The notes under the pieces were generated by a model. The model did not search any database and was not told where the DNA came from. It was given only the letters and a program-made list of their open reading frames with translations. Of a DNA stretch of 64,000 nucleotides, positions 1-64,000 are shown piece by piece; position 1 is the stretch's first letter, and every line of letters starts with the position of its first letter. Source of the DNA: an uncultured bacterium. GTDB lineage: Bacteria; Hydrothermota; UBA3072. The translations under genes and the position numbers were made by a program. The DNA is taken from contig CAYQMH010000002.1 of NCBI GenBank assembly GCA_964418485.1, positions 5,687-69,686 on the forward strand, written 5' to 3'.

Positions 1-73
1 AACCCATCTCACTACCCAAAAACTATTAAACCACAGAGAGTGCAGAGATTTTTTTCTTCTATTTAACAATGAT

Positions 74-478
74 TTAAAAATAATGTTTTAAAAAATCAGC
101 CGGGTTTAAAATTTTTATTTTTCGGAATTCGGTAATATCCAGTAGGTGAGTATCCCCAGAGATAATAAAATCAGCGTCTGCCGCAACCGCGCATTCGAGG
201 AATTTGTTATCCTCAAGATCTTTCTTGATTATATTATATTTCATTTCAGGACTTACAAAATTCGCTATCGAATCGAGAGAAGAAACTATATAATGCAAAG
301 TCTCATCGGGAATACCGAATTTTTCACGTTTTAAAACGCCCTCAAATTCGCTGATAATTTCTTTGGTGATATATAATTCTATTTTACCTTCGATTACAAG
401 TTCGAGGCATTTTCTGGGATGACCACCAAATAAGATGGCGGAGATTAAAACATTAGTGTCAAAAACAACGTTGAACAA
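74..478 (-). CDS. PIN-domain toxin (VapC-like) of a type II toxin-antitoxin pair
   Basis: N-terminal 'FDTNVLISA' acidic start and 'ISGDTHLL' motif are typical of the PIN_3 family. It sits immediately downstream of a small RHH gene. Confidence 0.6.
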   Translation of the reverse strand: MFNVVFDTNVLISAILFGGHPRKCLELVIEGKIELYITKEIISEFEGVLKREKFGIPDETLHYIVSSLDSIANFVSPEMKYNIIKKDLEDNKFLECAVAADADFIISGDTHLLDITEFRKIKILNPADFLKHYF

Positions 479-482
479 ATTA

Positions 483-740
483 CTACTCTTTTTTGAGGTT
501 ACTCTTTCTATAGGCTTCTATTTCTTTCTTTAAATCCTCTTCGGAGAAACCCTTCTCTACTTTTAGAATATCTCCGTAAGAAAAGATATTCCTCCATCGC
601 TCCTTTCTCTCGATGTAAATTCTCGCCGCTTCACGTACCAGTTCGGAACGGGAACGAGATTCCTCTTTAGCTATGTCATCAATTCTCTTCAGTAAATCCT
701 TTTTAAATGAAATATTTACAGCTTGACTCTTCAATTTCAC
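483..740 (-). CDS. ribbon-helix-helix (CopG-like) antitoxin
   Basis: 85 aa. The 'RSELVREAARIYI' RHH-like segment and its position directly upstream of the PIN gene, separated by 4 nt, support the call. Confidence 0.5.
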   Translation of the reverse strand: MKLKSQAVNISFKKDLLKRIDDIAKEESRSRSELVREAARIYIERKERWRNIFSYGDILKVEKGFSEEDLKKEIEAYRKSNLKKE

Positions 741-872
741 CTCCTATATACATTTTATGTATTAATATTATATATAATATTTGTATGATGTCAAGGGTTG
801 ATTGGCTGCTAAGATACGAAGACGCAAAGACTTTTTTGCTTTTTCGGAGGTGGTCAGAGTCTATATTTTCTT

Positions 873-1214
873 TTAAAGATCGAGAAGGATTTTTAGTCGA
901 TCTTCTACTTTACTTAGTGTATTATTAAAGACTTCTCCGATTGGTTTCTCTAACCTTATTTTTGATATAGAACGGATGTCTTCGCACTTTATGTAACTTT
1001 CATTATTGAGATTTCCCTCAGGTGGATTTACTCTGACGTGAAAGGGTATTCCTCTATATTTGCTTGTAATGGGTAAAACTACGACAAGATCAGCTGGTCC
1101 ATGATTGAAGGCATCTACTGAAATAACCAGAGCGGGTCTTATCCCCGCCTGTTCATGTCCCCTTGTGGGATTTAAATTGACAAGCCAAATTTCTCCTCTT
1201 GATGGACTCTTCAC
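873..1214 (-). CDS. mazF: MazF/PemK family endoribonuclease toxin
   Basis: 'GEIWLVNLNPTRGHEQAGIRPALVIS' is the classic PemK/MazF N-terminus. Length is 113 aa. Confidence 0.75.
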   Translation of the reverse strand: MKSPSRGEIWLVNLNPTRGHEQAGIRPALVISVDAFNHGPADLVVVLPITSKYRGIPFHVRVNPPEGNLNNESYIKCEDIRSISKIRLEKPIGEVFNNTLSKVEDRLKILLDL

Positions 1215-1216
1215 AG

Positions 1217-1462: not shown

Positions 1463-1664
1463 GATAACCTCCTATACATATTTATATACAAAAATATATA
1501 CAATATTGTGTATAAGTCAAGTGCCGGTTTAGCTACGAATCAAATTCTCGCACAAAGCACACAAAGTTTTTTCTTTATTCTAACTTCCAACTTCCAACTC
1601 CTAACTTCCTTATTAGCTACAAATAGCACGAATAATTTATTATGTGTTCTTGTTAGGAGGAATA

Positions 1665-3338: not shown

Positions 3339-3513
3339 CACGCAGAAACACAGACGACACGGAAAAAATGTTTTATTTAACCACGAAATATACGAAAAAC
3401 ACTAAACTTTTTATTACATTTTTTATAAAACCCAACTCATCCCAAAGATAGGAACAACAAATAACACGAATAGCACAAATGAATTGGGACGTAGATAAAC
3501 GCAGATATGCAGG
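3339..3513 (-). repeat. dispersed mosaic intergenic repeat, copy X1
   Basis: Roughly 85% identical in reverse complement to 7855-8010. Sub-modules recur at 53455-53580, 8993-9046, 54286-54412 and 62486-62550. Confidence 0.8.
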
Positions 3514-3584
3514 ATTTTTTGATTGTCGTTTTTCGTAAAGCCTTATGCCGAAGACCGAAATTGTAATCTTGCCCGAAAGTAAAC

Positions 3585-3623
3585 CGGCTCAGAATCCTAA
3601 AAAGGAATCCTGAGCCGATTTTT
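3585..3623 (+). terminator. putative rho-independent terminator
   Basis: 8-bp stem cggctcag/ctgagccg followed by ATTTTT. Confidence 0.4.
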
Positions 3624-3659
3624 AACTGCTAATTACCTTCTCTTTTTTTTGTTTTTTTT

Positions 3660-3914
3660 GACTCAGGACTCGCGGGCGTGTTGCCCAAAACCAATAGAAT
3701 AAAATAACACAGTTCACATTGTCATTGCGAACTCTTCTTCACGCCTTTCCACCGTGACGCAATCTCCACGTATAGCTTGCAATTAAGCCCTTTAATTTTA
3801 TCACAAGAGATTACTTCGCGAAAGTCGAGCAAGAGGACAAATTCGCAAAGACATTACTTTGGATAGCGAAAAGCCTTTCGGCAACACGCCCTCGCGACTC
3901 ACGACTCCTGACTC
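3660..3914. other. GC-richer ~190-nt segment bounded by a 12-bp perfect inverted repeat plus GACTC heptamer words
   Basis: gggcgtgttgcc (3674-3685) and ggcaacacgccc (3880-3891) form the inverted repeat. Flanking words are gactcaggactc and gactcacgactcctgactc. No ORF of 60 aa or more lies inside. Confidence 0.4.
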
Positions 3915-3917
3915 TTT

Positions 3918-6085: not shown

Positions 6086-7381
6086 TTAATTTTCTAACGC
6101 GGATATCCTTTTTTCCAAACTTCCATTAGCTTTCCTTAGCTCCTCGTTTTCTTTCTTTAAACCAATAACATAGAGTGTCAATTCTTCAATCTTTTCCAGA
6201 AGTTTTGCCTGCATTTCACCAACTTTTATCCCGCTTTTGAGTACTACTTCTTCTTTTGGGATACCCGGCAGACTTTTGTTGCTTTTGATATGTTTTTCGA
6301 GTTTATCAAGAGGCATTAATTTATAATTGTCCGCGAATACAAAATCAGACCAGTTACTTTCTACGGTTATTTCCTTTGTTCTTATGTGACCGTTAACGGC
6401 AAGTTTGTAATTACCGGGATTAATCGTCCCGATGCCAACATTGCCAGAAATCTTTTGGACAAATAAACCCTTTTCTCCGTCGTTATCATTCCCTCGAATC
6501 AAAACTCCTTGTGCTCCAGCAATAATTCCATACTTATTATCTGTGTTCCTTAAATAAAGTTTCGGATAACAATCTGAGTCTTCAGTATTAATAATTAAAC
6601 GTGCATCGGCATCTGTTCGGTAAATTTGTACATCTCCGCCTTCTACTTCTAATTTTTCATCAGGATCATCCGTTCCGATTCCGACATTGCCTGTTATTAC
6701 AGAATTTCCTTGGACGTGTAATTGTTCCGTAGGATCATCCGTCCCGATACCGACACGACCTGACGGGTCCACAGTAATGGCAAGTCGGTCGAATCCTCCT
6801 CCAATCCCATAAAATTTTAGACCACCATAACCAGCCTGATATCCTTGTATTGATGCGCTTCCAAAGTACATTCTATTATTAAGAGGAATTTTTATATCGC
6901 CGTTCACTTCCAGTTTCTTTTCGGGATCCGTCGTCCCGATGCCGACTTTGCCTGTTATTATAGAATTTCCCGCAACGTGTAATTGTTCCGTAGGATCATC
7001 CGTTCCGATACCTACATTGCCGGAAAAATAACCTTTTCCAACGAAATAACCACCATATCCATTTGAATTTTCACTTTTTCCAAAAAGAGCCATGCCGTTA
7101 CTTGTTTTTACTCTTCCATATACGCCAATTGAATTATCTTCATAGTAAGAATCGGTTTTAGTGTTATAACCGTAAATGGCAGATCGATTCTCCTCCTCCG
7201 TTGGTCCAGCTGCGCTCCATTGTACATGCAATTTGCTGTTTGGATTCGTTACTCCGACACCGACCTTATCCGAACTTGTTGTTAATCTTACTTTAGAACC
7301 ATCGTCAGTCCAGCCGTTCTCTCCATAACTGACCATACTAACCAACAACAATACGAGTACTACAACACTTAATTTTTTCAT
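6086..7381 (-). CDS. secreted tail-fibre-like repeat protein with C-terminal S74 intramolecular-chaperone-like domain
   Basis: Signal peptide, duplicated 'GIGTDDPTEQLHV.GNS.ITG.VGIGT.DP..KLEV' units, and a C-terminal coiled-coil 'GIKVGEMQAKLLEKIEEL...' resembling the endosialidase chaperone domain. Confidence 0.5.
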   Translation of the reverse strand: MKKLSVVVLVLLLVSMVSYGENGWTDDGSKVRLTTSSDKVGVGVTNPNSKLHVQWSAAGPTEEENRSAIYGYNTKTDSYYEDNSIGVYGRVKTSNGMALFGKSENSNGYGGYFVGKGYFSGNVGIGTDDPTEQLHVAGNSIITGKVGIGTTDPEKKLEVNGDIKIPLNNRMYFGSASIQGYQAGYGGLKFYGIGGGFDRLAITVDPSGRVGIGTDDPTEQLHVQGNSVITGNVGIGTDDPDEKLEVEGGDVQIYRTDADARLIINTEDSDCYPKLYLRNTDNKYGIIAGAQGVLIRGNDNDGEKGLFVQKISGNVGIGTINPGNYKLAVNGHIRTKEITVESNWSDFVFADNYKLMPLDKLEKHIKSNKSLPGIPKEEVVLKSGIKVGEMQAKLLEKIEELTLYVIGLKKENEELRKANGSLEKRISALEN

Positions 7382-7555
7382 ACTTTTCCTCCTTTTTTGT
7401 TTTGAGTATTAATTTAACCTAACAACAATAGTCTTTTTTTAGTATAAGAAAAATAGAGTATAATGTCAATATAAAAATTTTTGTTATATAAAAAGCCGAT
7501 ATTTGTGGATGGTAGTTTACTCAAGGTTGTGAATAATTTAGTCATAAGTCATTGG

Positions 7556-7663
7556 AGGCTGTGCCAAAACCCTCTTTTTCGCAATTTGCAGAAAACTAAG
7601 TTCTTGTTTTTCAAAGGCTTATTTTTTAGAAATCCGTTAAATTTGGACTTTTGGCACAGCCTC
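7556..7663 (+). repeat. ~109-bp long-hairpin element, copy A (MITE-like or sRNA)
   Basis: Terminal inverted repeats GAGGCTGTGCCAAAA...TTTTGGCACAGCCTC. About 85% identical to 9054-9162. Confidence 0.75.
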
Positions 7664-7854
7664 ATTGGTCGCTAGTCACTGGTCAAAAACAACAAAAGAA
7701 TCCGTGTTTATCCGTGTAAATCCATGGCAATATAATAGATTCTTCGAATCCAAGTTGAATTGTTGAATAGGAAAATAGTTGAATTATTTCCCATTTCCCA
7801 TTTTTCAATTTTTCTAATTCGTTTGTGGGGGTGGGTTTTAAACAGTAAAAATAT

Positions 7855-8010
7855 CCTGTTAATCTGTGTTCATCTGCGTCCCAATTCATTTGTGCTATTC
7901 GTGAGATTTGTTGTTCCTATCTTTGGGATGGGTTGGGTTTTTAAAAAACATAATAAAAAGTTTAGTGTATTTAGTGGTTAAATAGATTGGTTTTTTCGCT
8001 CTGTGGTTAA
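7855..8010 (+). repeat. dispersed mosaic intergenic repeat, copy X2
   Basis: Reverse complement of 3339-3513 at about 85% identity. Confidence 0.8.
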
Positions 8011-8039
8011 ACAATGGTAGTAGTTTGAATATAGTATTC

Positions 8040-8818: not shown

Positions 8819-9053
8819 AGTAATAGGTCGGTCGAAGGATCGCCGATGGCTTAAGGCAGGCAAAAAAGAAAAAATTCGTGCTATTCGTGTAATTCCATTT
8901 GAAGTAAATAAAATATCAAAAAGTAAAAAGCAAAATGACAGATAAAAATTTAAAATAATACCTTGCCCTACCGCACATAACTAAAAAATATTTGTGTGAT
9001 TTGTGCTATTTGTTGTTCCTGTCTTTGAGATGGGTTGGGTTTAGCGGAAAGCG

Positions 9054-9162
9054 GAGGCTGTGCCAAAACCCCCTTTTTTGCAAATCGCAGAAAATTAAGT
9101 TATTGCTTTTCAAAAACTTATTTTTTGCAAATTCGTTAATTTTGGACTTTTGTCACAGCCTC
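9054..9162 (+). repeat. ~109-bp long-hairpin element, copy B
   Basis: Same terminal inverted repeats as copy A, with one mismatch, and in the same orientation. Confidence 0.75.
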
Positions 9163-9209
9163 AGCGGTCAGCGGATAGCCGATTATCTTTGTGTTTTTTG
9201 TTTGGGGTG

Positions 9210-12958: not shown

Positions 12959-14165
12959 GAATTAAGTCACCTCTTTCTCTGCCTGTTGATATATAACCTA
13001 TCTTTACTTCCAGAGAATCCTCAATAAACTTTATAAAGCTTTTTGTTTCTTCGGGTAAAGAATTATAATCTTTGGCTAATTTCGTATTGCTCCAGCCCGG
13101 AAAGCTTTTGTAAATTGGTTTAGCTTTCTCTAATTTCCAAACTTCAGATGGAAACCATTCAAGTTTTTCTCCATCGATTTCGTATGCGGTTGCGATCTTG
13201 ACCTCGGGTAGGTTATCTAATACGTCGATTTTGGTAATAGCTATTTCGGTTGTTCCTGTTATCCAACAGGCGAATTTTGATGCGACAAGGTCCAACCAGC
13301 CGCAGTTTCTCGGTCTTCCCGTGGTTGCCCCAAATTCTTGACCGTCTTTTCGAATAAGTTCTTCTGTTTCTTTTTTCATCCTGCTGGGAAAGGGGCCTTT
13401 ACCCACCCTTGTGGTATATGCTTTTGTAACCCCGATGATATTGGAAATCAAGTTTGGAGGTATACCGCTTCCTGTTAGGATTCCTCCGGGTGTGGGGTTG
13501 GAGGAGGTAACGTAAGGGTAGGTTCCGAAGTCGATATCTAAAAGTACTCCCTGTGCACCTTCGAATAGTATTTTTCTATTATCTTTTAGGAGTTTACGAA
13601 GAAGTTCTACCGTATCAGTTATTATTTCTCCGTAATTTTTCCTGAAGGATTCTAAAGTTCTGAGGTATTCAGGCGGTAGATTGAATTTAGATAAATAATC
13701 CGGAGAGAAAATATCTCCCATCCTGATTCCTTTCCTTAGTATTTTATTGGCATAAGCCGGTCCTATCGCTCTTCCAGTCGTACCGATCACTTCTTTCATT
13801 TCTTTTTCTTCTTCGAAATAAGAGGGAAGTATTAAATGACATCTTTTGCTTATTTTTAGATTGTTTTTTAATTCTATTCCCCTCCGTTTTAATTCTTCAA
13901 TTTCTTTCATTAATTGAACAATATCAATTACCACTCCGTTTCCTATTATTGATATTTTGTCCTGATGAAAGATACCTGATGGGATAAGATGCAGAGATAA
14001 TTTTTCATCTTTGTAGAACACTGTATGTCCGGCATTCGCGCCGCCTTGATATCGGCAAACCGCATCGAACGAACCGCAGAGGTTGTCAATTAGTTTTCCT
14101 TTCCCTTCGTCACCCCATTGAAGCCCTATCAGGGCAGCATTTCCGTATTTGATCTTACCCGCCAT
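12951..14165 (-). CDS. purA: adenylosuccinate synthetase
   Basis: 'GDEGKGK' P-loop and conservation across the full length. Confidence 0.95.
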   Translation of the reverse strand: MAGKIKYGNAALIGLQWGDEGKGKLIDNLCGSFDAVCRYQGGANAGHTVFYKDEKLSLHLIPSGIFHQDKISIIGNGVVIDIVQLMKEIEELKRRGIELKNNLKISKRCHLILPSYFEEEKEMKEVIGTTGRAIGPAYANKILRKGIRMGDIFSPDYLSKFNLPPEYLRTLESFRKNYGEIITDTVELLRKLLKDNRKILFEGAQGVLLDIDFGTYPYVTSSNPTPGGILTGSGIPPNLISNIIGVTKAYTTRVGKGPFPSRMKKETEELIRKDGQEFGATTGRPRNCGWLDLVASKFACWITGTTEIAITKIDVLDNLPEVKIATAYEIDGEKLEWFPSEVWKLEKAKPIYKSFPGWSNTKLAKDYNSLPEETKSFIKFIEDSLEVKIGYISTGRERGDLIRV

Positions 14166-14794
14166 CAGAAACTTTCCCTGTATAATATCTGGATTTGTCT
14201 TCCAACATCTCCTGAAAAGAGGTTCTTTAGATCGAATTGAATACCCAGGTTTCCGGATTGTAGTTTGTAGGCAAGATTGAATCGGTTTTTATCCTCGTCG
14301 TTAACCCCCATTATGTATTCTAAGTGAAATGTGTTGGCTTCGTCTACATTTATAAACGCATTTCCAAAAAGATCTGCGCCTTGATCTTCTTCATAGTTAT
14401 AATTAACTCCTCCGGAGACCATTAAACCGGGCAATAGTCGAGTTCCTATGGTTGCAAACATGTATTTTTTAGCGTAATTCTCGATAGGTTCGTCGTTGTA
14501 TCCAAAAACGCTTTCTATCATGCCGTTGCTGAATAGCCGTATTCGCAGATCTATAGCAGGTCTACTCTCCCACTCCGTATCTCCATATCCCACAATATTT
14601 GTTCCTCCAAAGCTTGTGCCCAAAATAATGCCGTTCCATATTCCGACACAAATTTTGGCTCTCAATTTATCGATAGGTTCTTCTTTTATATGGATAATAA
14701 CTTCTCCGTGATAAAGAAGAACGGGTAATGGATTATCAATTCCTGTTATCGGTTCTTGATAAGTAGAGATGACAGATAAAATCAAAAGAATCAT
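14165..14794 (-). CDS. hypothetical outer-membrane beta-barrel-like protein
   Basis: Alternating hydrophobic pattern and a C-terminal Phe. The stop overlaps the purA start. Confidence 0.3.
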   Translation of the reverse strand: MILLILSVISTYQEPITGIDNPLPVLLYHGEVIIHIKEEPIDKLRAKICVGIWNGIILGTSFGGTNIVGYGDTEWESRPAIDLRIRLFSNGMIESVFGYNDEPIENYAKKYMFATIGTRLLPGLMVSGGVNYNYEEDQGADLFGNAFINVDEANTFHLEYIMGVNDEDKNRFNLAYKLQSGNLGIQFDLKNLFSGDVGRQIQILYRESF

Positions 14795-14804: not shown

Positions 14805-17800
14805 TTATATAGTAAAACGAATGCTCCCTTCACCGATTATATTGTTAATTTTTTGTATCATCTGCTCATCCGGTTTTATTCTTATATCCTTAGACCTTAG
14901 ACGTATTTCTTCATAGTCGTTTCTGCATAGTATCGTAAGAGGTATCTTTCCCGAATGTTCGTTGAAGACTTTTTTCACACCGGTTATGTCTTCTTCGCTT
15001 AACCCCGCAAGGTCCAGGATAAGATACGCGCTCTTGAGATGATTTTCTATTTTATCTAAAGGCATTATTTTTTCCGCGCTCACTTGAACCTGATTACTGA
15101 TTGAATCACCCTTAATCCTTCCTTTTATTACTACTGAGCCGAGAGAATCTAATTTGCTTCCAAATTCTTCGAATAGTTTAGGGAACACCAGTACTTGGAA
15201 TGAACCGTTTTCGTCTTCTACATTTAATTTCGCCCATCTGCGATTCTTTTTTGATGTTCTTTTATCGACCTTGGTTATAGTTCCTCCGGTAATGATTAAC
15301 TTATTAACAGGTAAATCTTTTAATTTTTGAGACGGAGTGAATAGTGCTTCAGAAAGTTTTTCATATTGAGATAAAGGATGACTGGAGAAAAAGAAGCCGT
15401 AAGCTTCCTGTTCGTATCTCAATTTTTCCTCTTCGTCGAATGGTGTTGTCGGAATTAATTCTTTCTTCCTCTCACCAAACAGTGTTTCCATTTTTCTTTT
15501 TCCCTTTGTCTTTGCGTAATCAATTGCGTTTTGCAAAGAAGATAGCAATGAATGTCTGTTTATCTCAAGAGAGTCAAGTGCTCCTGCTTTAATAAGATTT
15601 TCCATGACTTTTTTATTGACTAATCTTCCCCCTGCTCTTTCTACAAAGTCAAAGAAATCTTTAAATTTTTTCTTTTCCCTTTCTTTTATAATTTCCAGTA
15701 CAGCGTTTTTACCCACGTTTTTTATACCTCCAAGACCATAACGGATTGTGTTCTTCTCAGGAGTAAATTTATAATCAGAAATATTTATGTCCGGAGGTTT
15801 TATTTCTATTCCATGTTTTCTGGCATCTTTTATAAATTTTCTTATATCTTCTACTTCTGCACCTATGTTGCTTGTAAGAGAAGCTGCATAAAACTCGGTA
15901 GGGTAGTGGGCTTTTAGATATGCGGTTTGATAGGCTATTTCAGCATAGGATACCGAGTGTGCCTTGTTAAAGCCGTACTTTGCGAAGGAGCTCATTCTCT
16001 CAAATATATCTTCTGCCTGGTTTTTCGGGATTTTATTTTTAACACAACCTTCGATAAACTTTTCTCCCATTGATTGCATTACATCCATTTTTTTCTTGCC
16101 CATTGCTTTTCTTAGGATATCCGCTTCTCCCAGGGAAAACCCTGCGAGTATATTTGCTATTTTCATTACTTGTTCCTGATAGAGCATTATTCCGTAAGTT
16201 TCCTCTAACACGCCCTTTAACTTTGGATGTGGGTACTCAGGATCTATTTTTCCTTTTTTTCTTAGTGCAAATTCATCCTGATCGATGTTTTGAAGAGGTC
16301 CCGGTCTATATAATGCGACCGACGCGACCAGATCAGAGAAGTCACTTGGCTCTATTTTCCTGAGCATTTTTTGCATGCCTTCCGATTCAAGCTGAAATAC
16401 TCCGGTTGTATCTCCTCTTCTTATAAGTTCATAAGTTTTTTTATCGTTTTTATCCAAATCATAAATGTCCAGTTTATGTTGAATATTCTTAAGGGTTTCC
16501 TGTATAACAGTAAGAGTCTTAAGTCCCAGAATGTCTACTTTTAAGAGTCCCAGTTTTTCTAATGTTTCCATGGCGAATTGTGTAGTTATGATTTTTTCTT
16601 CCCCTGTTGTACTTACAAAGAGAGGTACAAAATCGGTAATATCACCGGGAGCGATTACCACTCCTGCTGCATGGGTGGATGTTTGCCTTATCAATCCTTC
16701 GAGTTTTTTAGCAAGTTCTATAAGTTCTTTTAAATCCGCTCTACTTTGAATTTTTGCTTTTAATTCGCTGGAAGCGTTTATTGCTTCTTCGACAGATTGT
16801 TCTCTTTCTATTTCTTTGGCTATTTCATCGCAGTCGGCATAAGGAATTTCGAGTACTCTCCCTACGTCTCTTACTACGGATCTAGCTTTTAAAATACTGA
16901 AAGTGACGATTTGAGCAACATTTCTCTCTCCGTATTTTTTCTTAATATGTTGAACGACTTCGTCACGTCTTACATCTGAAAAGTCTATATCAACGTCCGC
17001 CATCGAGACTCTTTGCGGGTTTAAAAAGCGTTCAAAAATAAGGCCGTGCTTTAATGGATTTACGTTAGTTATTCCTAAACTATAGAGAACGAGGCTACTT
17101 GTGGCTGAGCCTCTTCCCGGTCCCACAGGTATTCCTTTTTCTTTGGCGAAGTCCACGATGTCCTTAATTATTAGAAAATATCCCGCCAGTCCCAGTTCCT
17201 TGATTACTGAGAGTTCGTATTTAAGGCGGTCTTCTTCGCCCGGAGTAACTCTTTTTAATCTTTTTTCCAGACCTTCTCTCGCGAGGTGTTCCAGATATTC
17301 CCCTAGCCCTTTAAAACCTTTAGGTATTTCTATCGAAGGTAATAGTGTTTTGTCTGTTTCGAATGGAACGGGTATACATTTTTCTGAGAAAACTTGTGTG
17401 TTTTCAATCGCTTCTGGTATATCTTTGAACAATTCTTTCATTTCTTCAGGTGACCGGAGATAAAAATTATCCGTGGGCAATTTTAAAGCATTTTCTTCGC
17501 TAATTGTTTTCTTTGTTTGAAGTAAAAGCAGAATTTCATGGCTTTTGGCGTCTTCTTTCTTTAAGTAATGGACATCGTTAGTCGCTATAATCGGTATATC
17601 GAATTTTTTGGAAAACTCTATTAGTTTTTCGTTTACTTCGACTTCCCTTTCAAGACCGACGCGCATTATTTCGATATAAAAATCTTCTTTAAACTCTTTT
17701 TTAAAGAAACTTAATAGTTCTTCTGCTTCTTCTAATTTACCCTCGGCGACAAATGCCGGTATAATTCCGTTTCTGCAAGCGCTTCCAACTATTATTCCTT

Positions 17801-22330: not shown

Positions 22331-22410
22331 ATCTGTTGGTCTGTGGGTCGGTTAGTCCGTTGGTCCGTTTAAAAAACACACCAACACACCCACGCACTAA
22401 CACACTAACA
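22331..22410 (+). repeat. dispersed heptamer-word repeat Z1
   Basis: Contains GTTGGTC and CACTAAC words. About 85% identical to 52247-52349. Confidence 0.7.
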
Positions 22411-22449
22411 AAATTTAATATTTTTATATTTTAGCGGCTTTGCCGCGCA

Positions 22450-23620: not shown

Positions 23621-23656
23621 CATTAGGTTTTAGTTAAAAGAACAATAAATAAAAAA

Positions 23657-23872
23657 CTTTGTGTCCTTTGTGAGCTTTGTGTGAATGATTTAGTCATTAG
23701 TCATCGGTCACTAGTCACAGGTCAAAAAAAATTATTTGTGCTATTCGTGCAATTTGTTGTTTCTCTTTGTTTTTGTGAGGGGTAGGGTATAAACAATAAA
23801 AATTCTTTGTTGTTTCTCTGTGATCTCTGTGTGTTTTTTTGTTTCTCTGTGTGCTCTGTGGTTAGAATCGTT
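23657..23872 (+). repeat. dispersed mosaic intergenic repeat Y1
   Basis: Reverse complement of 45789-45916 at about 85% identity. Built from CTTTGTG, TAGTCA and CTCTGTG words. Confidence 0.8.
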
Positions 23873-25468: not shown

Positions 25469-25499
25469 GAGATTAAGGATTTCCGACCAGACGAGAGCT

Positions 25500-27197: not shown

Positions 27198-27578
27198 AAC
27201 TATAAATTCTAAGTTTTTTTTCGACTTTCGCAAGCCCCATTATAGCGAAAAAACCGCTAAAGTGAAAAAATAAAAAATCAAAATGCAAAGTTAAAAATCA
27301 AAGTTTGAAAATAAAGTAAAAACAAAAATAAAAATCTTTGTGTTATTTTGGTAAATTTGTGTTTAGATCTAGGAATTTCGCTATTTTAGCGCATTTCACG
27401 TTTATTATTTTAATATGGTGGGGAATTAGCCCTATTTTTAAATTTCTAAGTTAACATCTTTTTTAAAAAAAATAAAATAACTGTATTTAAGTTTACCGCT
27501 TCTTAAACTTTTGATCTGTTATATCTTACAAAAGAGCATGTCAAGGAGTTTTTAAAGCAAAAAAACCTATTTAACCCC

Positions 27579-27606: not shown

Positions 27607-27607
27607 T

Positions 27608-27632: not shown

Positions 27633-27662
27633 GAATTGGATTTTAAGGTTAAGGAGGAAAGA

Positions 27663-43295: not shown

Positions 43296-43372
43296 TACCT
43301 TACTTCGAGCAGATAAATTGGATTATTAGCTATTGGCTTTTTGCCTTTTGCTTTTTGCTTTAATTTTTTAAA

Positions 43373-43732
43373 ATGAGAAATTTTAGAAACCTTAATGTAT
43401 GGAAAGAAGGAATTAGGCTTGCAGAAGAGGTCTACAAATTATCGGGATTGTTACCTGGTACTGAGAAAGATGGATTAAAGAGTCAGGTATGTAGATCATC
43501 TATATCAATTCCTTCAAATATTGCTGAAGGATGCAGTAGAGACAGTGAAGTATATTTTAAAAGATTTTTGGAAATCGCTTTAGTTTCTTCATTCGAATTG
43601 GAAACTCAATTTTTAATAGTTAAGGAGCTCGATTTGATTCCAAAGGACAAGTTAAATAAAGTATTGGATTTATTAGACAAAGAGCAAAGAATGCTTAATA
43701 TTTTTGTTGAAAAGCTGGAAGCTGACGGCTAA
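43373..43732 (+). CDS. four-helix-bundle protein (Avd-like, TIGR02436 family)
   Basis: Characteristic 'IPSNIAEGCSR' motif. Length is 119 aa. Confidence 0.6.
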   Translation: MRNFRNLNVWKEGIRLAEEVYKLSGLLPGTEKDGLKSQVCRSSISIPSNIAEGCSRDSEVYFKRFLEIALVSSFELETQFLIVKELDLIPKDKLNKVLDLLDKEQRMLNIFVEKLEADG

Positions 43733-43739
43733 AGTCTAA

Positions 43740-45788
<2,049 letters not shown>

Positions 45789-45916
45789 CCACAGAGTGCA
45801 CAGAGGAAGAAAAAACGCACAGAGAACACAAAGGAACAACAAAGAATTTTTATTGTTTGTACCCCACCCCTCACAAAAACAAAGAGTAACGACAAATAGC
45901 ACAAATAACACAAATC
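45789..45916 (-). repeat. dispersed mosaic intergenic repeat Y2
   Basis: Reverse complement of 23657-23872. Confidence 0.8.
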
Positions 45917-46047
45917 TTTTTTGTTTTTACTATTTGACCATTTTTTAATTTAACTACTCAACTAATCCGAAGGATTGATTATTGGGATGCAGATTAACGC
46001 AGATTTAAAGGGATTTTTTTTGTTGTAAGAAGTGCTGAACCTGTTCC

Positions 46048-46482: not shown

Positions 46483-46566
46483 TATTTACTCTTAGGTAGT
46501 ACGACATTTCATACAGCTTGCCCATAGTCAAACTTGTTCGTTTATGCTCCTGTTTAATACTAGTTG

Positions 46567-46612
46567 TTGAATTCATGATAATTATTATAGTCATTTTACT
46601 TTAACTGTTAAG
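46567..46612 (-). promoter_or_regulatory. repeated consensus promoter module, copy 1 (-35 degenerate, TTAACA)
   Basis: Minus strand reads cttaacagttaaagtaaaatgacTATAATaattatcatgaattcaa. Five copies occur in the window. Confidence 0.6.
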
Positions 46613-46726
46613 CTTCAGCTACATAATGTTCCGCCTGTCCGCGTCTGGGGTGGATAGGGTAAAGGACATTAGCCCACAACGTATATGCTGTGTTAGGCGA
46701 TGCTCTGGTGGCCTTGTATTTGGACC

Positions 46727-47008: not shown

Positions 47009-47193
47009 CTCCTTCTTGTGTTTTTTCGCTTAACATATTCATAAATGCATTGCAGATATCCTCCCAATTTTGCAGTGTAGATGCAATGCGGATATACCGT
47101 TTTTAGGAGAATTGCCAGAATATCCTTCTAAATATTTTTGCTGTATATCACTTTCTTTTTTAAAATTTAGATTGTCCATTTGAATACTAACTA

Positions 47194-47239
47194 TTGAATT
47201 CATGATAATTATTATAATCATTTTACTTAGACTGTCAAG
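47194..47239 (-). promoter_or_regulatory. repeated consensus promoter module, copy 2
   Basis: Minus strand reads CTTGACAgtctaagtaaaatgatTATAATaattatcatgaattcaa. Confidence 0.65.
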
Positions 47240-47344
47240 CATAAGAACAGCAAATGCCGTCAGCTGTCAGTTTTATCTCGAAACCCGTAACCACAACTTT
47301 AATCAACTACAAAGGACACATTTTTATATGTTCATCTTTATTTA

Positions 47345-49420: not shown

Positions 49421-49587
49421 TATATATCCTCCACATTGTCGGCCAAAATTTCACCTACCTTATTCATAGACAAAGTATCTCAATTTCTTTCTTTGACACG
49501 GTGTCGCAATAGAGATAGCTTTTTGCCGTTTTATAACTGTTTTTCTTGATAGGTGTTCTCTGTAAAAGTCTTCAAGATACATTGTTA

Positions 49588-49633
49588 TTGAGTTCATGAT
49601 AATTATTATAGTTATTTTACTTAGGCTGTCAAG
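49588..49633 (-). promoter_or_regulatory. repeated consensus promoter module, copy 3
   Basis: Minus strand reads CTTGACAgcctaagtaaaataacTATAATaattatcatgaactcaa. Confidence 0.65.
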
Positions 49634-49655
49634 TTTAGGAAAAACAAAATATTAT

Positions 49656-50486: not shown

Positions 50487-50503
50487 CCGGAGCCTCCTTA
50501 AAA

Positions 50504-50533
50504 TTATTATAATTGTTTTACTTAGGCTGTCAA
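50504..50533 (-). promoter_or_regulatory. repeated consensus promoter module, copy 4, fused directly to the RBS
   Basis: Minus strand reads TTGACAgcctaagtaaaacaatTATAATaattttAAGGAGGctccggATG. Confidence 0.7.
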
Positions 50534-50572
50534 AAATAGGAACAATATAATGATACGAAGAGCACGAATAAT

Positions 50573-51602: not shown

Positions 51603-51643
51603 TCATGATAATTATTATTAGTTATTTTACTTAGGCTGTCAAG
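51603..51643 (-). promoter_or_regulatory. repeated consensus promoter module, copy 5
   Basis: Minus strand reads CTTGACAgcctaagtaaaataactaATAATAATtatcatga, followed by the RBS. Confidence 0.6.
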
Positions 51644-51739
51644 TTTAGAAGCAACAAATCACACGAATTGCACGAATAACACAAATTTTTTAAAGCTAAG
51701 AGCCAAAGGCGAAGGTTGAGGGCGAAAAGCTTTGTTTAA

Positions 51740-51774
51740 CAAAAAAACCACAAAAACGGGATGTTTTTGTGGTT
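51740..51774 (-). terminator. putative bidirectional rho-independent terminator
   Basis: 12-bp stem aaccacaaaaac/gtttttgtggtt flanked by A7 on one side and T5 on the other. Confidence 0.5.
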
Positions 51775-51809
51775 TTTGTAGATTCGAATGAATCTAAAGT
51801 GGAATTATA

Positions 51810-52169: not shown

Positions 52170-52246
52170 AAATACACCTCCTTTTTTAATTGTTTAATAT
52201 CTTTATAAGAGATTTTCACTATAATGTCAATATGAAAAATTTTTTT

Positions 52247-52349
52247 GCCACGAAGACACTAAGACACAAAGTCCTTGGATCGTTGGTCTGTTGGTCGGTT
52301 AGTCCGTAAAAATAACGCACCAACACACCCACGCACTAACCCACTAACT
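52247..52349 (+). repeat. dispersed heptamer-word repeat Z2
   Basis: Matches 22331-22410. Also shares module 'gccacgaagacactaagacacaaag' with 53455-53480. Confidence 0.7.
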
Positions 52350-52430
52350 TTATTTAACGCTTGACAGCGAGTGTATTATTCCTTATTCTTTCGAGGGAAT
52401 TAATATTATTATGAGATTGGGGTTTATTGG

Positions 52431-53453: not shown

Positions 53454-53454
53454 T

Positions 53455-53580
53455 AGCCACAAAGACACTAAGGCACAAAGAAAAAATTTTTTTAACCACG
53501 AAATACACTAAATTTTTTATTGTAATTTTAAAACCCAATTCCCCAAAAAGGTTAACAACAAATCACACAAATAGCACGAT
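53455..53580 (-). repeat. dispersed mosaic intergenic repeat X3
   Basis: Same orientation as X1, sharing 'aaccacgaaata.ac...aaacactaaa' and 'gaacaacaaata.cac.aatagcac' modules. Confidence 0.7.
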
Positions 53581-53649
53581 TTTTTTTTATGTTTTAATAT
53601 AGGTCTTGACATGGATAATTGATTATCTAAATTATATCAGGAGGTTAAA

Positions 53650-54285: not shown

Positions 54286-54412
54286 TTATTTGTGATATTT
54301 GTGCAATTTGTTGTTGCTAATTTTTTTGTGGTTGGGGTTGTTTTTAAAGCAGCAAAAAAATTGGGTGTGGAGTGGTGGTGTATCTGAGTTGATCTGCGTT
54401 CATCTGGGTCCT
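54286..54412 (+). repeat. dispersed mosaic intergenic repeat X5
   Basis: 'tttgtgatatttgtgcaatttgttgttgc' and 'gatctgcgttcatctgggtcc' modules are shared with X2. Confidence 0.6.
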
Positions 54413-54415
54413 ATT

Positions 54416-55543
54416 TTACAATTTCGGTGGGTTACCGAGTTCTTTATCGAGTTCCTCGAGTAAATCTTTTGCCTTTTTTGATACTTTGTTCGGGGTCCAG
54501 ATGTATGCTTCTGCCAAGAGATCTCCCTTTCCTATTCCGTAGAGATTTCCCATTCCCTGGCTTTTTAATACGAATATTCTTCCGGATTTTGTTCCGGGAG
54601 GTATAGTCAATTTTACTCTTCCGTTTAGTGTCGGGATTGTGACTTTTCCACCTTCTATAGCCATTTGATAACTTATTGGTACTTTGATCTTAAGATTGTT
54701 TCCCTCTCTTTTGAATCTGAAGTCTGATTTTACTATTATCTCTACGATTATGTTCCCCTTGGGACCGCCTCTTATGCCTGTATTTCCTTCTCCTCTTAAG
54801 GGAATATAATTACCTGTTTCAACCCCTGCCGGGATTCTGACCGAAATTTGTTTTTCTTTTTTTACCCTTCCTTCTCCGTGGCAGTCGGAACAGGCATCTT
54901 TTACGATTTCTCCGATTCCTCCGCAGAGCGGGCAGGTGGAAACGGATACCATCTGTCCGAAAAAACTGGAGCGGCTTACCTGGACTTCGCCGTTTCCGTT
55001 GCATCGTGAACATGTCGTTGTTTTTCCGCCTTTTCCGTTGCATTTTCCGCATTTCTCAAACAGACGGATTTTTATCTTTTTTGAGGTTCCTTCCGATGCT
55101 TCTTTTAGAGTTATTTCAAGAGGAATACGGACATCTTCTCCGGTTGGTTTATATACTTTTCTGCTTCCTCGTGTTCTTGTCGTTTGTCCGAATAAATCTC
55201 CGAAGATACTCCCGCTTCCGCCAAAACCGAAACTACTGAAGAGATCTCCGAATATATCCCGAAGGTCATCCTGGTGGGTAAAATCCTGCCAGGTGAAGTT
55301 TCTGCCCTGGAAATGAACGCCTTCTTTACCAAATCTATCGTAGTTGCCCCTTTTTTCCGGGTCCGCAAGCACTTCGTAGGCTTCAGAAATTTCTTTGAAC
55401 TTTTTTTCGGCTTCTTTCTTGTTTTCTTTATTTACGTCCGGATGGTACTTTCTTGCAAGTTTTTTGTAAGCACTTTTTATTTCTTTGGTACTCGCGTCCT
55501 TGCTGACCCCCAGTGTTTCATAGTAGTCATTATTTTTCGGCAT
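54416..55543 (-). CDS. dnaJ: chaperone DnaJ
   Basis: J-domain HPD motif, G/F region, and four CxxCxGxG zinc-finger repeats. Confidence 0.95.
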
Positions 55544-58790: not shown

Positions 58791-58943
58791 TGAAAGTTAA
58801 TATTAAATGTTTTCGTGTCAAGAGAAGGTTTTCCCCTAATTGATGACTTATGGTTTAATAAACTTGAAATATCGTTAAATGCAAATGCGAATCGCTATTA
58901 ATTTACTACAAAAGCAGTAAGACGCAAAGCCCTACACCAAAGT

Positions 58944-61353: not shown

Positions 61354-61519
61354 GATTTCTTAGCATTAGTTATTCTTTACCTCTTATCATATTAGGCATG
61401 TTCTTGTGCCAGTAAGGTTTTTTTATTTTAAAGTCTAAGTAAATATTCGTTTATAACCTACCATATAGATTTTAACCGGACATGTTTAGTGTCTGTCATA
61501 AATCAATTTAATTTCTCTC

Positions 61520-62314
61520 TTATTCGTATTCCCAGTATTCTTTTAATACAAAATTTTGCTGAGATGATTTTTCCAGTTCATTCCGCAGATAATATCGGTG
61601 TTCAAATCCGGTTGTCACTATAATTCTCTTACCCTGAAATTCCGTTGCATAGTTGATAATGTTTTTTGTCATAGTTTTATTTCGTTTATCCCAGTATTCT
61701 TGCTTTGAGATTATAAATTCTTTAAATTGCTTCAACTCCGGAACGGTCTCTGTGTATTTTAGGAAATTGGTATGAAAAATTCTGTGTTTCATGGCACATA
61801 TGGAGTCGGCTGCCGCCGAATTTATTGCTCTTGGACAATCTAGAAAGTCGCAGAGTTTGTCGAAATTAATCAGCATAGAAATCTGTTCTTTGAAAAGCGA
61901 AAGGGAATCGTTTAATTCGCTTTTATTAAATAAATCTTCTAATTTTTTGTTAAACGCTTCTTCTTGTTCGAAATACCGGGTTTCTATATAATATTTATTT
62001 CGGTTTTCGATGTCATAATATTTAAGAATGAGAGAAGGATTCCTATCCAGGTACTTTTTTACCATTATTGTCTCAAAAGTCGGGTTTTTGATTTTTGTTA
62101 CGAATTCAGAAAATTCTTCGGCATCCCAGGAAATTGGGTGCTCGAACAAAATCACATCGGGTTTAACCTGTTCTAATATCTTAAGCATATCTTCTTCATC
62201 AAAATTGCCCCTCGCTTCGTGAACGGTTCCGAAGATAATAACTTCAGTTTTAGAGGAGGTTTTTGATGAAAGTAAAAAAGGTAATAGTAATAAAATTGTG
62301 AACCAATTTTTCAT
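61520..62314 (-). CDS. TraB/GumN family secreted protein
   Basis: Signal peptide and 'IIFGTVHE' family motif. Confidence 0.5.
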   Translation of the reverse strand: MKNWFTILLLLPFLLSSKTSSKTEVIIFGTVHEARGNFDEEDMLKILEQVKPDVILFEHPISWDAEEFSEFVTKIKNPTFETIMVKKYLDRNPSLILKYYDIENRNKYYIETRYFEQEEAFNKKLEDLFNKSELNDSLSLFKEQISMLINFDKLCDFLDCPRAINSAAADSICAMKHRIFHTNFLKYTETVPELKQFKEFIISKQEYWDKRNKTMTKNIINYATEFQGKRIIVTTGFEHRYYLRNELEKSSQQNFVLKEYWEYE

Positions 62315-62485
62315 TTGTTTTTCCCTCCATTCGTTACGCTTTTTTATCCCAGTCGTACTTTCCTTTTTGGTGTTCGGCGAATTGTTGGTGCTGTATGGGT
62401 TTCAATATACAATTTACAAGGTTTATCTGTCTGTGTCAAGAACTTTATTCCTTGTTATCTATATGTCCTACATGTGAATATTTTA

Positions 62486-62550
62486 GGTGTTGGGTTGGGT
62501 TTTAAACAACACAGATATTTTTTTCTTTGTGCCCTTTGTGTCTTTGTGTG
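62486..62550 (-). repeat. dispersed mosaic intergenic repeat X6
   Basis: 'gttgggttgggttttaaa' plus 'ctttgtgccctttgtgtctttgtgtg', which is the reverse complement of module f at 53455. Confidence 0.6.
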
Positions 62551-62671
62551 AGAATCTTTTTCGGAGTGGGGTGGGGTTGTTGACATTTACGTGGGAAACT
62601 CATATCATGTATAGTAAATGAAAGTTCGAAAAAGATTGTATGAGCGATTTCTTTTTGAAGTTTCGCCAGTT

Positions 62672-64000
62672 ATGGGGTATATAGGCGTTATTTTAATATA
62701 TGTTTCTTTTCTTTTTTTAGTACCTTTAATCATAGATTATTTATATTTAAGAGAGTTTGTTAATTTGAAAGCTTTTTTAATACCGGCCTTAATCTCTTTT
62801 ACCTTAGGCTTTGCATTAAAAGGTAGAAGACCTTTAGACAGGATTGATCACAAACAGGGTATGATGATAGCTGCTCTATCATGGATTATTGTTTCTTTGA
62901 TAGGTTCTCTTCCTTATCTGCTTGGGCTTCATGCGAGTTTTATAGATTCGTTTTTCGAAACGGTTTCAGGTTTTACAACTACGGGAATAACGATGCTCTC
63001 GGGACTTGATACCAAGATACGTGCTATACTTTTTTATAGGGCTTTAACTCAGTGGGTGGGAGGTCTTGGCATCTTAAGTTTTGCTTTATTGATTATTTAC
63101 CAAGGGGGTATTGCTTCTCAGCTTTTTGAGGGAGAAAGTCATAAGATTAGGACAAAAAGGATAACTCCTGGATTATTTAATACGGTAAGGATTTTATGGG
63201 TAATATATGGATGTTTAACTTTAATTCTTATTTTCCTTCTGAAAACAGAAGGGGTGAACATTTTTGACGCAGTTACTCACTCTTTTACCACACTTTCGAG
63301 TGGAGGATTTTCAACGCACGATTTGAGCATTGGGTATTATTCCGCCATGAATTATCCTTTATCAAATATTATTGAGTGGACTGTAATTGTATTTATGTTG
63401 TTTGCCGGAATGAATTTTCTTTTTCATTACAGAGTTTTCCAGGGAGACTTTAAAGCTCTGTGGGATTCCTATGAGATTAAGTTATTCTGGTTGTTTATAT
63501 GTTCGGCTTCTGGTATTATTATTTTTAAGCAGTTCGCATCCGGTCAGTTTTTTTCTCCCGACTTAGTCAGAACTTCCATTTTTCAGGTGGTTTCGATTAT
63601 GACTACAACGGGGTTTGCGACTCGGGATATTGCATCGACTATTTATGGAGGTGTAGCCAAGCAGATTTTCCTTTTTTTAATGGTGATAGGTGGCTGTGTA
63701 GGTTCTACTTCCGGTGGATTAAAAATTTTGCGTATAGGGATTTTATTTAAGCTTATTAAATTTAAAATTTTATCGATTGTTTATCCTCTTCATACAGTGC
63801 GTTTTGTTATGGTTGATGGAAGTAAATTGGATTTTGCTGAAGTGAGAAGAGTTACCTCTTTGTTTGCTGCCTGGATTTTTTTGCTCGCATTAGGTGGAGT
63901 GATAACAGCTTTTTTTAGTAATCTCGGGGCTCTGGAGTCTTTTTCCGGTATGGCTTCTGCTCTTGGTAATGTCGGACCTTGCTATATTTCGGCTTCTGAC
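62672..64000 (+). CDS. trkH: TrkH/KtrB family potassium transporter (3' partial, runs off the window)
   Basis: Manual translation from the ATG at 62672: MGYIGVILIYVSFLFLVPLIIDYL...GFTTTGITML. No stop is reached before 64000. Confidence 0.75.
   Translation, partial: MGYIGVILIYVSFLFLVPLIIDYLYLREFVNLKAFLIPALISFTLGFALKGRRPLDRIDHKQGMMIAALSWIIVSLIGSLPYLLGLHASFIDSFFETVSGFTTTGITMLSGLDTKIRAILFYRALTQWVGGLGILSFALLIIYQGGIASQLFEGESHKIRTKRITPGLFNTVRILWVIYGCLTLILIFLLKTEGVNIFDAVTHSFTTLSSGGFSTHDLSIGYYSAMNYPLSNIIEWTVIVFMLFAGMNFLFHYRVFQGDFKALWDSYEIKLFWLFICSASGIIIFKQFASGQFFSPDLVRTSIFQVVSIMTTTGFATRDIASTIYGGVAKQIFLFLMVIGGCVGSTSGGLKILRIGILFKLIKFKILSIVYPLHTVRFVMVDGSKLDFAEVRRVTSLFAAWIFLLALGGVITAFFSNLGALESFSGMASALGNVGPCYISASD

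Follow-up and report, generated by a model that had tools for sequence, protein, structure and literature searches.

The intergenic DNA of the 64,000-nucleotide (nt) stretch analysed here (the window), which sequence identity assigns to candidate division WOR-3, consists largely of short tandem arrays of words of 7–10 bases, mostly CAC-type, that are combined into mosaic modules and copied, in either orientation, among intergenic sites. This mosaic-repeat observation, first made in a preliminary description of the letters of the window, is real. We tentatively favour, at somewhat less than even confidence, the reading that the arrays form a WOR-3-wide mosaic family, similar to the short tandemly repeated repetitive (STRR) sequences, that acts and evolves as DNA and whose words are the sites of a putative sequence-specific protein. 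The evidence comes from words that stay fixed while their spacers vary, from modules that are exchanged between relatives at places that are kept, and from the recurrence of the same words in distant phyla.

Words are enriched in intergenic DNA and recur in long copies

In the approximately 7 kb of intergenic DNA of the window (27 stretches), the main words are enriched 10–30-fold over both dinucleotide shuffles and coding sequence scaled to the intergenic length. CACAAAG occurs 14 times, compared with 1.1 in shuffles and 0.6 in coding sequence, CACGAAT 9 times (0.6 and 0.5), CACAGAG 9 times (0.3 and 0.5) and CACAAAT 13 times (2.1 and 0.9), and all words of the form CAC-N-A-R-N together occur 69 times (26 ± 5 and 14). 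These words are therefore far from the background frequency in coding and shuffled DNA that the preliminary description had named as grounds for abandoning the idea. Among the words that it listed, CACAAAG, CACGAAT and CACAGAG stand out, but AACTTCC (3 intergenic copies versus 1.0 in shuffles and 1.8 in coding sequence), GACTCAG (1 copy), TAGTCAC (2), GTTGGTC (4) and CACTAAC (4) are individually not significant.

Arrays of period 7–10 detected with Tandem Repeats Finder occur at 3.3 per kb in intergenic versus 0.33 per kb in coding DNA (approximately 10-fold), and the 23 observed exceed the 2.9 ± 1.5 of Markov-resampled intergenic DNA approximately 8-fold. Self-matches of 4-mers have their maxima at lags 7, 8 and 9. 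The tandem periodicity first noticed is thus real, although "heptamer" is too narrow a name for it, the period being set by the word. Arrays are found in approximately 17 of the 27 stretches rather than in nearly all larger intergenic regions, and they are scarce within the accessory island at 46.4–51.4 kb; the core genes rpoD, ligA and dnaJ had been correctly named as neighbours, and their positions agree.

The repeat search recovered the proposed long copies: X1/X2 (3420-3526 and the reverse complement of 7842-7948, 107 nt, 87%, with collinear pieces extending further, to 3360/7998), Y1/Y2 (23724-23839 and the reverse complement of 45810-45925, 116 nt, 88%, with an extra piece pairing 23835-23864 with the reverse complement of 45786-45815) and Z1/Z2 (22336-22418 and 52275-52357, 81%). 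Only the left part of Y1 (23657-23723) proved to have no counterpart in Y2. Along the 64 kb, arrays switch back and forth between the two orientations, and GC skew tracks the coding strand, so that the suggested comparison of array orientation with replication is uninformative.

Anatomy of words, arrays and composites

The basic element is a short direct array of two to four units, in which the main unit is CAC-N-R-A-K followed by one to three free bases. In a position weight matrix anchored on CAC, position 4 is free, position 5 is R in 76% and position 6 is A in 78%, which corrects the CAC-N-A-R consensus proposed at first. The unit period differs from word to word: it is 8 for CACnAAG, 9 for CACRAAT, 10 for CnCAGAT/CACnGAT and 7 for TTAGTCA. 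The first unit is mostly (A/G)CCAC, with a T-run before it. At least eight unit types occur in the arrays of the window, the other array types being GTTGGTC, CACACC, TTAGTCA, AACTTCC, CGCAGAT and AGCGGTC, and arrays are interspersed with A/T runs, a C-rich box (AAACCC-N-CCCC) and further 7–10-nt arrays in modules of approximately 25–135 nt.

Two composites recur. A core of approximately 80 nt, TTTTTATTGTTT - C-rich box - AACAACAAAT-NN-CACRAAT-NN-CACRAAT, is present in seven copies in the window and in more in the WOR-3 relative L123 and in L049 and L092. The 135-nt Y type has four copies on the contig (at ligA, rpoD, lptD and an Orn/DAP decarboxylase gene), each beginning 0–14 nt past the stop codon with its C/A-rich strand sense. 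Sub-module order varies from copy to copy: the CAGAT module follows the core on its 3' side in X1 but is found on its 5' side in the dnaJ copy, which makes the family a true mosaic.

Words stay fixed while spacers and modules change

Across 11 aligned copies of the core, AACAACAAAT and the two CACRAAT words are invariant and the NN spacers are variable. None of 12 WOR-3 CACRAAT arrays has identical spacers, versus 76% of control tandem repeats. In simple sequence repeats (SSRs) of the slippage type, units are alike save for random point changes; here the differences concentrate in the spacers and at position 4. Fixed words between variable spacers argue against plain slippage and for sequence-specific recognition. 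The heterogeneous triple GCCAC(G/A)AAG-R-CACTAAG-R-CACAAAG is also found again at several sites and in several species.

We compared five related WOR-3 contigs with conserved synteny. Their orthologous intergenic regions are all built of such arrays, with orientation and array place kept but with different lengths, word types and adjoining modules; by this comparison, module content at orthologous sites is replaced wholesale between relatives. A CAC array stands directly at the ligA stop in five of six genomes, with the word type differing, and one relative has approximately 800 nt of unbroken modules downstream of ligA. Between the conserved divergent promoters of the DUF5684 and FAD-protein genes only the filler varies, and the distances from array end to DUF5684 -35 box in the six genomes (17, 27, 25, 17, 28 and 39 nt) weakly hint at helical phasing, a pattern noticed post hoc. 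The Y module is 85–90% identical among paralogous copies and in L123, a relative with a LigA of only 83% identity, so that its similarity between species equals that between paralogues. A metagenome scan with the ligA 3'-end pattern returned two relatives only.

The same words occur in distant phyla

The pattern ACRAAT-NN-CACRAAT-NN-CACRAAT has eight matches in the window and none in shuffles, and it was found in at least 118 species genomes. Grouped by record titles, the genomes among the matches listed are from Bacteroidota (40), Planctomycetota (21), Chloroflexota (17, including three Herpetosiphon isolates), Acidobacteriota (15), Desulfobacterota-type bacteria (7), Verrucomicrobiota/Kiritimatiellota (6) and, rarely, Proteobacteria (4), with one Firmicutes-labelled bin. 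Raw match counts in public collections were rejected as proof of word specificity after a reversed-word control. What survived the controls is the CCAC header (C precedes the array in 83%), the variability of spacers, which often differ within an array, the polarity of inverted partners, the taxonomic skew and the trinucleotide controls, in which eight other trinucleotides gave 0–2 matches each, making the effect CAC-specific. An inverted partner with CCAC outward accompanies 51% of the arrays, versus 5% for the reverse arrangement (75 downstream versus 7 upstream partners). Further dialects co-occur outside WOR-3 (CACnAAG x2, 13 matches; CACnGAT x2, 24; CACAGAG x2, 6), and the intergenic regions of Herpetosiphon show the same grammar as the window, together with GATCCCC arrays.

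Within inverted pairs, arm-to-arm mismatches amount to 9.0 per position in spacers versus 2.4 in words, without G.U excess (22/25/69). They fall in spacers and on the first C of inner words, which makes ACGAAT the effective word. An RNA hairpin role of the pairs was rejected on these grounds.

The array neighbours in these phyla are ordinary housekeeping genes, and no gene family is enriched among them (150 neighbouring ORFs, that is, open reading frames, and 172 families, none in more than two members). A link with PF05635 (23S intervening sequence protein)/GxxExxY genes, suspected from two loci, was rejected, as only three PF05635-like ORFs turned up across 812 kb of loci with arrays. BLAST against plasmids gave one unannotated Persicobacter match and against phages no match; the same words are present in phage contigs.

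Viral loci (L130, L139, L142, L173, L181, L258, L293, L301 and others) contain long perfect 9-mer tandem arrays of up to 12 units; such arrays, whether of real or of control words, are frequent among contigs of phages and giant viruses. They are a phenomenon apart from the three-word arrays and call for caution with arguments from pattern counts.

The presence of the same words in several distant phyla means that they are probably recognised by something. The broader claim is that the CAC words are a shared intergenic code, (C)CAC-N-R-A-K at 8–10 bp and often in outward inverted pairs, read by one conserved putative protein family in WOR-3, Bacteroidota, Planctomycetota, Chloroflexota, Acidobacteriota, Verrucomicrobiota and Desulfobacterota. 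As a joint claim we consider it conceivable but doubtful. If true, the code would have a scope like that of the REP-RAYT system described below, yet be unrelated to it, and could also explain the cyanobacterial STRR arrays.

Palindromic mini-elements nest in the arrays

A fully palindromic, 117-nt element has three copies on the contig (identity at least 86%), each inside a heptamer array. With ends GAGGCTGTGCCAAAA / TTTTGGCACAGCCTC, a terminal stem of 15–18 bp and flanking duplicates CATTGG / (A)AGCGG, it qualifies as a miniature inverted-repeat transposable element (MITE). In relatives, a 31-nt palindrome (CCTGGTACGGTCGTTCCTCCCTACAGGGCAG) is inserted exactly between the CAC/CGC and the AGAT/AGAG of a word, identical copies included; it is not in the window, where the corresponding "empty" modules are intact. 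The arrays are thus landing sites for smaller palindromic insertion elements. The CAC-word modules of the window themselves have neither terminal inverted repeats nor target-site duplications.

Two direct-oriented copies of the 117-nt element bracket a toxin–antitoxin pair of the MNT/HEPN type plus X2, and longer variants of the 31-nt element in L334 carry further nested insertions. A larger, ORF-free element (3659-3916) has GACTCAG-type heptamers in direct orientation on both sides; elsewhere it has only a weak partial match (L049).

Interpretation and alternatives

We infer that the words are recognition sites of a putative trans-acting DNA-binding protein. Several copies of it would bind side by side along one array; it could be a host protein of nucleoid or boundary type, or an enzyme resembling a recombinase or transposase, and modules would spread and be swapped through recombination or insertion. 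Recognition would account for the conservation and the spread of words alike. Candidate roles are a transcription-unit insulator or roadblock, a promoter-upstream site, or none, the arrays being selfish. The original proposal of a binding factor or of a replication- or recombination-generated repeat class thus finds partial support in the fixed words with free spacers, the CAC specificity, the module replacement and the nested elements, but no factor was found in the approximately 86 kb of the contig readable for gene search.

Several observations weigh against the protein-site reading. These 86 kb yielded no gene for a binding protein or transposase and none resembling RAYT, for which a search had been suggested. 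The unit period varies with the word (7, 8, 9 or 10), which is awkward for one cooperative protein on double-stranded DNA. The closest pair of large copies on the contig is 88% identical, so that none is near-identical and there is no sign of recent large-module transposition. The reversed-word control gave 79 viral matches versus at least 120 for the real pattern. Finally, the consistent sense placement of all four Y-type copies just past stop codons, and the excess of C (22%) over G (14%) in the composites, fit a role at the transcript level better.

Closest to the favoured reading, and differing from it in denying any host role, is the view that the modules are non-autonomous selfish micro-elements whose arrays are multi-site ends for a transposase or recombinase encoded elsewhere; inverted pairs would be complete elements, single arrays solo ends, and accumulation between genes would follow from insertion being harmless there. 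Dispersal of composites in both orientations, wholesale module replacement, the inverted doublets of fixed outward CCAC polarity and the demonstrably mobile 31-nt and 117-nt palindromes within arrays are what it would lead one to expect, and words in phage contigs and many phyla would fit horizontal spread. It accords poorly with the absence of target-site duplications from the arrays themselves, with inverted-pair symmetry that runs a variable 3–10 nt past the words and so has no fixed terminus, with large paralogous copies that (at 81–88% identity) are no closer than copies from another species, and with the lack of a nearby transposase or an enriched neighbour gene family. We regard it as possible, though on the unlikely side.

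A role in the transcript, with composites as unstructured A/C-rich 3'-flank elements that load Rho in the manner of Rho utilization (rut) sites or serve as a platform for an RNA-binding protein, is possible for the Y type, although for the composites at large we consider it unlikely. A rut region is at least approximately 70 nt of unstructured, C-rich, G-poor RNA in sense orientation downstream of a gene. Composites lie at the stops of ligA, rpoD, lptD, dnaJ, lepB, the FAD-protein gene and the Orn/DAP decarboxylase gene with the C/A-rich strand sense, the array at the ligA stop recurs in five of six genomes, the predicted RNA is unstructured and richer in C than in G, and the terminator-like hairpin after X1 implies that X1 would be transcribed. 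However, antisense arrays and arrays in untranscribed gaps are numerous. Post-stop cases mostly belong to convergent gene pairs in which the element spans the whole gap, so that orientation is uninformative; in co-directional gaps, two arrays are sense and three antisense (805, 50554 and 51654); and arrays also stand between divergent promoters (X2, Z1, Z2, 62486 and 1551). G is only mildly depleted, the words are poor in YC dinucleotides, and arrays of other phyla show no preferred direction relative to transcription (single arrays, 20 sense and 16 antisense).

Neutral slippage, in which arrays would be SSRs tolerated only outside genes and similar between sites by low-complexity convergence, is already disfavoured, and we judge it improbable. 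Short tandem 7–10-mers are generally common, as the matches of reversed words in viral loci illustrate, array copy number declines as steeply as in controls, and heptamers are given as the most frequent of the long SSR classes in bacteria (Mrazek 2007, as relayed via PMC4679880). Slippage would nevertheless leave unexplained why words are kept while spacers differ, why one heterogeneous array of three words is found again at different sites and in different species, why composites of 107–135 nt are 85–90% identical between unlinked sites and between species, and why the effect is CAC-specific and taxonomically strongly skewed.

That the modules encode small structured non-coding RNAs is scarcely credible: Z1/Z2 and the 117-nt element do fold more stably than shuffled sequence (z -3.4 to -5.2), but they fold alike on both strands, as DNA palindromes do, the Y family has no covarying pair and a consensus fold of only -1.8 kcal/mol, and no Rfam match reached the gathering score, either for the window or for 15 loci of other phyla (a single match was at chance level, E 0.54). 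A tRNA identity was likewise rejected, there being no real match.

Source, gene map and other features

The window lies within the metagenome contig Ga0315545_1000065 of the Joint Genome Institute (100,926 bp), where window position w = 86545 - record position; the remaining assemblies of the source strain are 100% identical. The assignment to WOR-3 rests on LigA, 83% identical to proteins labelled "candidate division WOR-3 bacterium". GC content is approximately 36%. Besides the genes in Table 1, the window holds the genes lepB, secA, purA, dnaE and dnaG, mraZ with the division and cell wall (dcw) cluster through ftsZ, toxin–antitoxin pairs (PIN, MazF, MNT/HEPN and HepT), and DUF5684 and FAD-protein genes with divergent promoters.

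Table 1. Positions of arrays, nested elements, genes and signals in the window; contig handles mark positions in relatives or outside the window.
Feature	Position	Strand	Description
Module end	1..60	+	C-rich box, then CCACAGAG / TGCAGAG array, then T-run
AAG-type array	805..829	+	degenerate, three words (GCTAAG / TACGAAG / CGCAAAG); mazF 3' end to next promoter
Mixed arrays	1551..1640	+	CACAAAG x2, AACTTCC x4 (period 7), ACAAAT-AG-CACGAAT; divergent promoter region
X1	3339..3530	+	CAC-word arrays, T-runs, C-rich box, AACAACAAAT-NN-CACGAAT-NN-CACAAAT, CG(T/C)AGAT module; after DUF4143 ATPase gene stop, before intrinsic-terminator-like hairpin 3581-3621
ORF-free element	3659..3916	.	19-nt inverted-repeat ends (3671-3689 / 3876-3894) in GACTCAG-type heptamer array
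Heptamer array	7540..7690	+	TTAGTCA/TTGGTCA type, interrupted by 117-nt palindromic MITE-like element
117-nt element	7554-7670		flanks CATTGG / CATTGG
Word array	7699..7723	-	ATCCGTGT(N), period 10
X2	7822..8012	-	reverse complement of X1 (87%); divergent region upstream of MNT/HEPN pair
Word array	8866..8900	-	ATTCGTG, period 9
Core composite copy	8983..9046	-	CACAAAT words and C-rich box
117-nt element, copy 2, with array	9053..9209	-	element 9053-9169 in AGCGGNN heptamer array, followed by CACAAAG word at lepB stop
117-nt element	L336 7747-7863		just upstream of window position 1
Z1	22331..22412	+	GTTGGTC-type array (period 8), then CACACC/CACTAAC array (period 8); the two partly complementary
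Y1	23640..23872	-	135-nt Y-type composite, sense, from 14 nt past rpoD stop; additions: TTAGTCA heptamer array, CACAAAG x3 at far end
rpoD	23876-25582	-
Weak remnant	27334..27365	-	two words (CTTTGTG ... ATTTGTG)
mraZ promoter	27578-27636		TTGACA-N17-TATAAT, then three GTGG boxes at 10-bp spacing (27607-27636)
Heptamer array	43325-43361		TTTGCTT / TTAGCTA, preceding PF05635 gene
PF05635 gene	43373-43732		L124 9628-9978; L334 ~5047
ligA	43755-45788	+	follows PF05635 gene
Y2	45786..46030	+	Y-type composite from ligA stop codon (TAA-CCACAGAG); GGATGCAGATTAACGCAGAT module, period 10, at ~45985-46025
Accessory island	46.4-51.4 kb		with restriction–modification system
Promoter-leader module	46548-46629, 47175-47256, 49569-49650, 50495-50551, 51604-51660	-	L123 ~14400-14450, ~14990-15020; L124 ~15170-15215; L125 ~13640-13690
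Two-word array	50554..50572	+	TACGAAG-AG-CACGAAT at hepT stop, antisense
CACRAAT array	51654..51690	+	four words, period 9; immediately upstream of promoter-leader module
Hairpin AAAAAACCACAAAAACGGGATGTTTTTGTGGTTTTTG	51745-51785		L123 ~15030-15070; L124 ~19336-19375; L125 ~17703-17740; L335 ~1638-1665
A/T-tract promoters	52200-52246, 7441-7485		same promoter in L123, L125, L334, L335
Z2	52244..52350	+	GCCACGAAG-A-CACTAAG-A-CACAAAG, then GTTGGTC array, CACACC/CACTAAC array; between divergent DUF5684 and FAD-protein promoters
Composite C	53454..53590	+	from FAD-protein gene stop (TAG-CCACAAAG...); C-rich box and CACAAAT array
Composite F	54286..54415	-	at dnaJ stop, sense; CAGAT-type module (period 10)
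dnaJ	54416-55543	-	gene group grpE-dnaK-dnaJ
AAG-type array	58905..58929	+	degenerate
Boxes and array	62486..62590	-	C-rich box, CACAAAG x3, second G/C box beside trkH promoter; divergent region
31-nt element sites	L335 1454-1484, 3581-3611; L334 9943-9973, 9264-9294, 7758-7870		relatives only

The hairpin AAAAAACCACAAAAACGGGATGTTTTTGTGGTTTTTG downstream of DUF5684 is conserved in all relatives and looks like a bidirectional intrinsic terminator, from which it follows that classical terminators exist in the lineage. Several promoters have a conserved A6-8 T5-7 tract directly upstream of TTGACA, for example CAAAAAAATTTTTCATATTGACATTATAG, reminiscent of an UP element. There are 13 copies of CTTGACA in intergenic DNA and none in coding DNA. 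A portable promoter-leader module of 57–71 nt (CTTGACAGCCTAAGTAAAAT-N-ACTATAATAATTATCATGA, with -35, -10 and start codon on the minus strand) precedes five accessory genes in the 5-kb island and other genes in relatives, and it looks like a cassette-type expression signal. The PF05635 gene between ftsZ and ligA, with a heptamer array of its own before it, is present in the window, L124 and L334 and absent in L123 and L125. ORF 6086-7381(-), of 431 amino acids and without a Pfam match, has internal coding repeats at 6415-7021 (119-nt units 82% identical; a 31-nt motif five times) and lies upstream of a 710-amino-acid protein sorted by the type IX secretion system.

Comparison with known systems

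STRR sequences are intergenic arrays of short tandem units of approximately 7 nt, with several types per genome, some hairpin-forming pairs and an open function (PMC2670836). The short, tandem, dispersed intergenic arrays of the window, of several unit types, resemble them, and by the array criterion (23 arrays of period 7–10 in 7 kb, at least eight unit types, 17 of 27 stretches) they belong to the STRR type. The hosts of STRR are heterocystous cyanobacteria and the units CCCCA(A/G)T, TT(G/T)GTCA or CAACAGT. Here, the host is WOR-3 and only the TTAGTCA/TTGGTC arrays resemble an STRR unit. The units TT(G/T)GTCA and CCCCA(A/G)T reportedly go back to Mazel et al. in 1990; the TTAGTCA/TTGGTC arrays of the window and the GATCCCC arrays of Herpetosiphon are similar to them. 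In contrast to STRR, the CAC words have a period of 8–10 with free spacers, two to four units per array and composites of 80–135 nt.

TAACTGA heptamer repeats occur in Beggiatoaceae, Cyanobacteria and Bacteroidetes in intergenic sets of two to six copies, with larger heptamer assemblages in some Bacteroidetes intergenic regions, and a binding factor has been proposed for them but not found (MacGregor 2015, PMC4679880). Like the CAC arrays, they are one short intergenic word common to distant phyla; the word is another one, however, and its sets are usually forward-oriented and placed a few bases before start codons, unlike the CAC arrays. GACAGAT heptamers are found in the Coxiella intervening sequence (PMC4990558). 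The literature searched holds no description of the present words. The DnaA box, MraZ box, KOPS (FtsK orienting polar sequences), Chi, V(D)J-like heptamer/nonamer, integron attC and Tn7/Mu-type ends were rejected by eye, with at most one or two shared bases.

Repetitive extragenic palindromic (REP) sequences, bacterial interspersed mosaic elements (BIMEs) and REPINs (inverted REP doublets) occur between genes in large numbers and in mosaic form; a trans-acting protein, the REP-associated tyrosine transposase (RAYT), recognises them, and they have been co-opted for various roles; the REP unit is an imperfect palindrome of 20–40 nt with a conserved 5' GT(A/G)G. CAC arrays are likewise intergenic and mosaic, with REPIN-like inverted doublets of variable spacer in other phyla. 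They are direct arrays with 5'-CCAC at the outward end (83%), single arrays do not pair with themselves, stems are not conserved as pairs, and a RAYT gene was not seen in the 86 kb. The early statement that the construction differs from REP/BIME therefore holds by the palindrome criterion, although STRR and other heptamer arrays are precedents for it. Pneumococcal BOX elements and neisserial intergenic mosaic elements (NIMEs) consist of modules that vary in number, order and orientation between genes, as do the few modules of the present family; theirs are 20–150 nt of unique sequence without 7–10-nt words and do not occur outside a single genus. Very small dispersed repeats and MITEs are said, in work of Elhai et al. 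from 2008, to nest within cyanobacterial repeats, as palindromes of 20–30 nt at precise positions. The 31-nt element at CAC^AGA and the 117-nt element in heptamer arrays nest with similar precision, but sequences and hosts are unrelated and the target here is the word of a tandem array.

Ribbon-helix-helix and AbrB-type operators (omega WATCACW heptads, the 8-bp met-boxes of MetJ and MraZ boxes) bind one dimer per 7–10-bp unit. As a mechanistic analogue, they share with the CAC arrays short units in direct or inverted order; known operators are local to few promoters, whereas the CAC arrays are genome-wide and have no linked protein. The window's own mraZ operator shows this tandem-unit pattern, with three GTGG boxes (TGTGGGTAAC AGTGGTGGAA AGTGGGGAAT) as expected for MraZ; the mraZ start is probably ATG 27664 and not the listed TTG 27606.

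Arrays of this kind fragment metagenome assemblies and can mislead intergenic annotation. To our knowledge, no mechanism has been established for intergenic arrays of the STRR or heptamer type, which have been on record for over 30 years. To these systems the present locus adds constrained words with free spacers, words shared by defined distant phyla, and the insertion of mini-elements at a fixed position of a word, three facts that together make a targeted search for a word-reading protein feasible. If such a factor exists, it would define a widespread and so far overlooked level of genome organisation or of mobile DNA.

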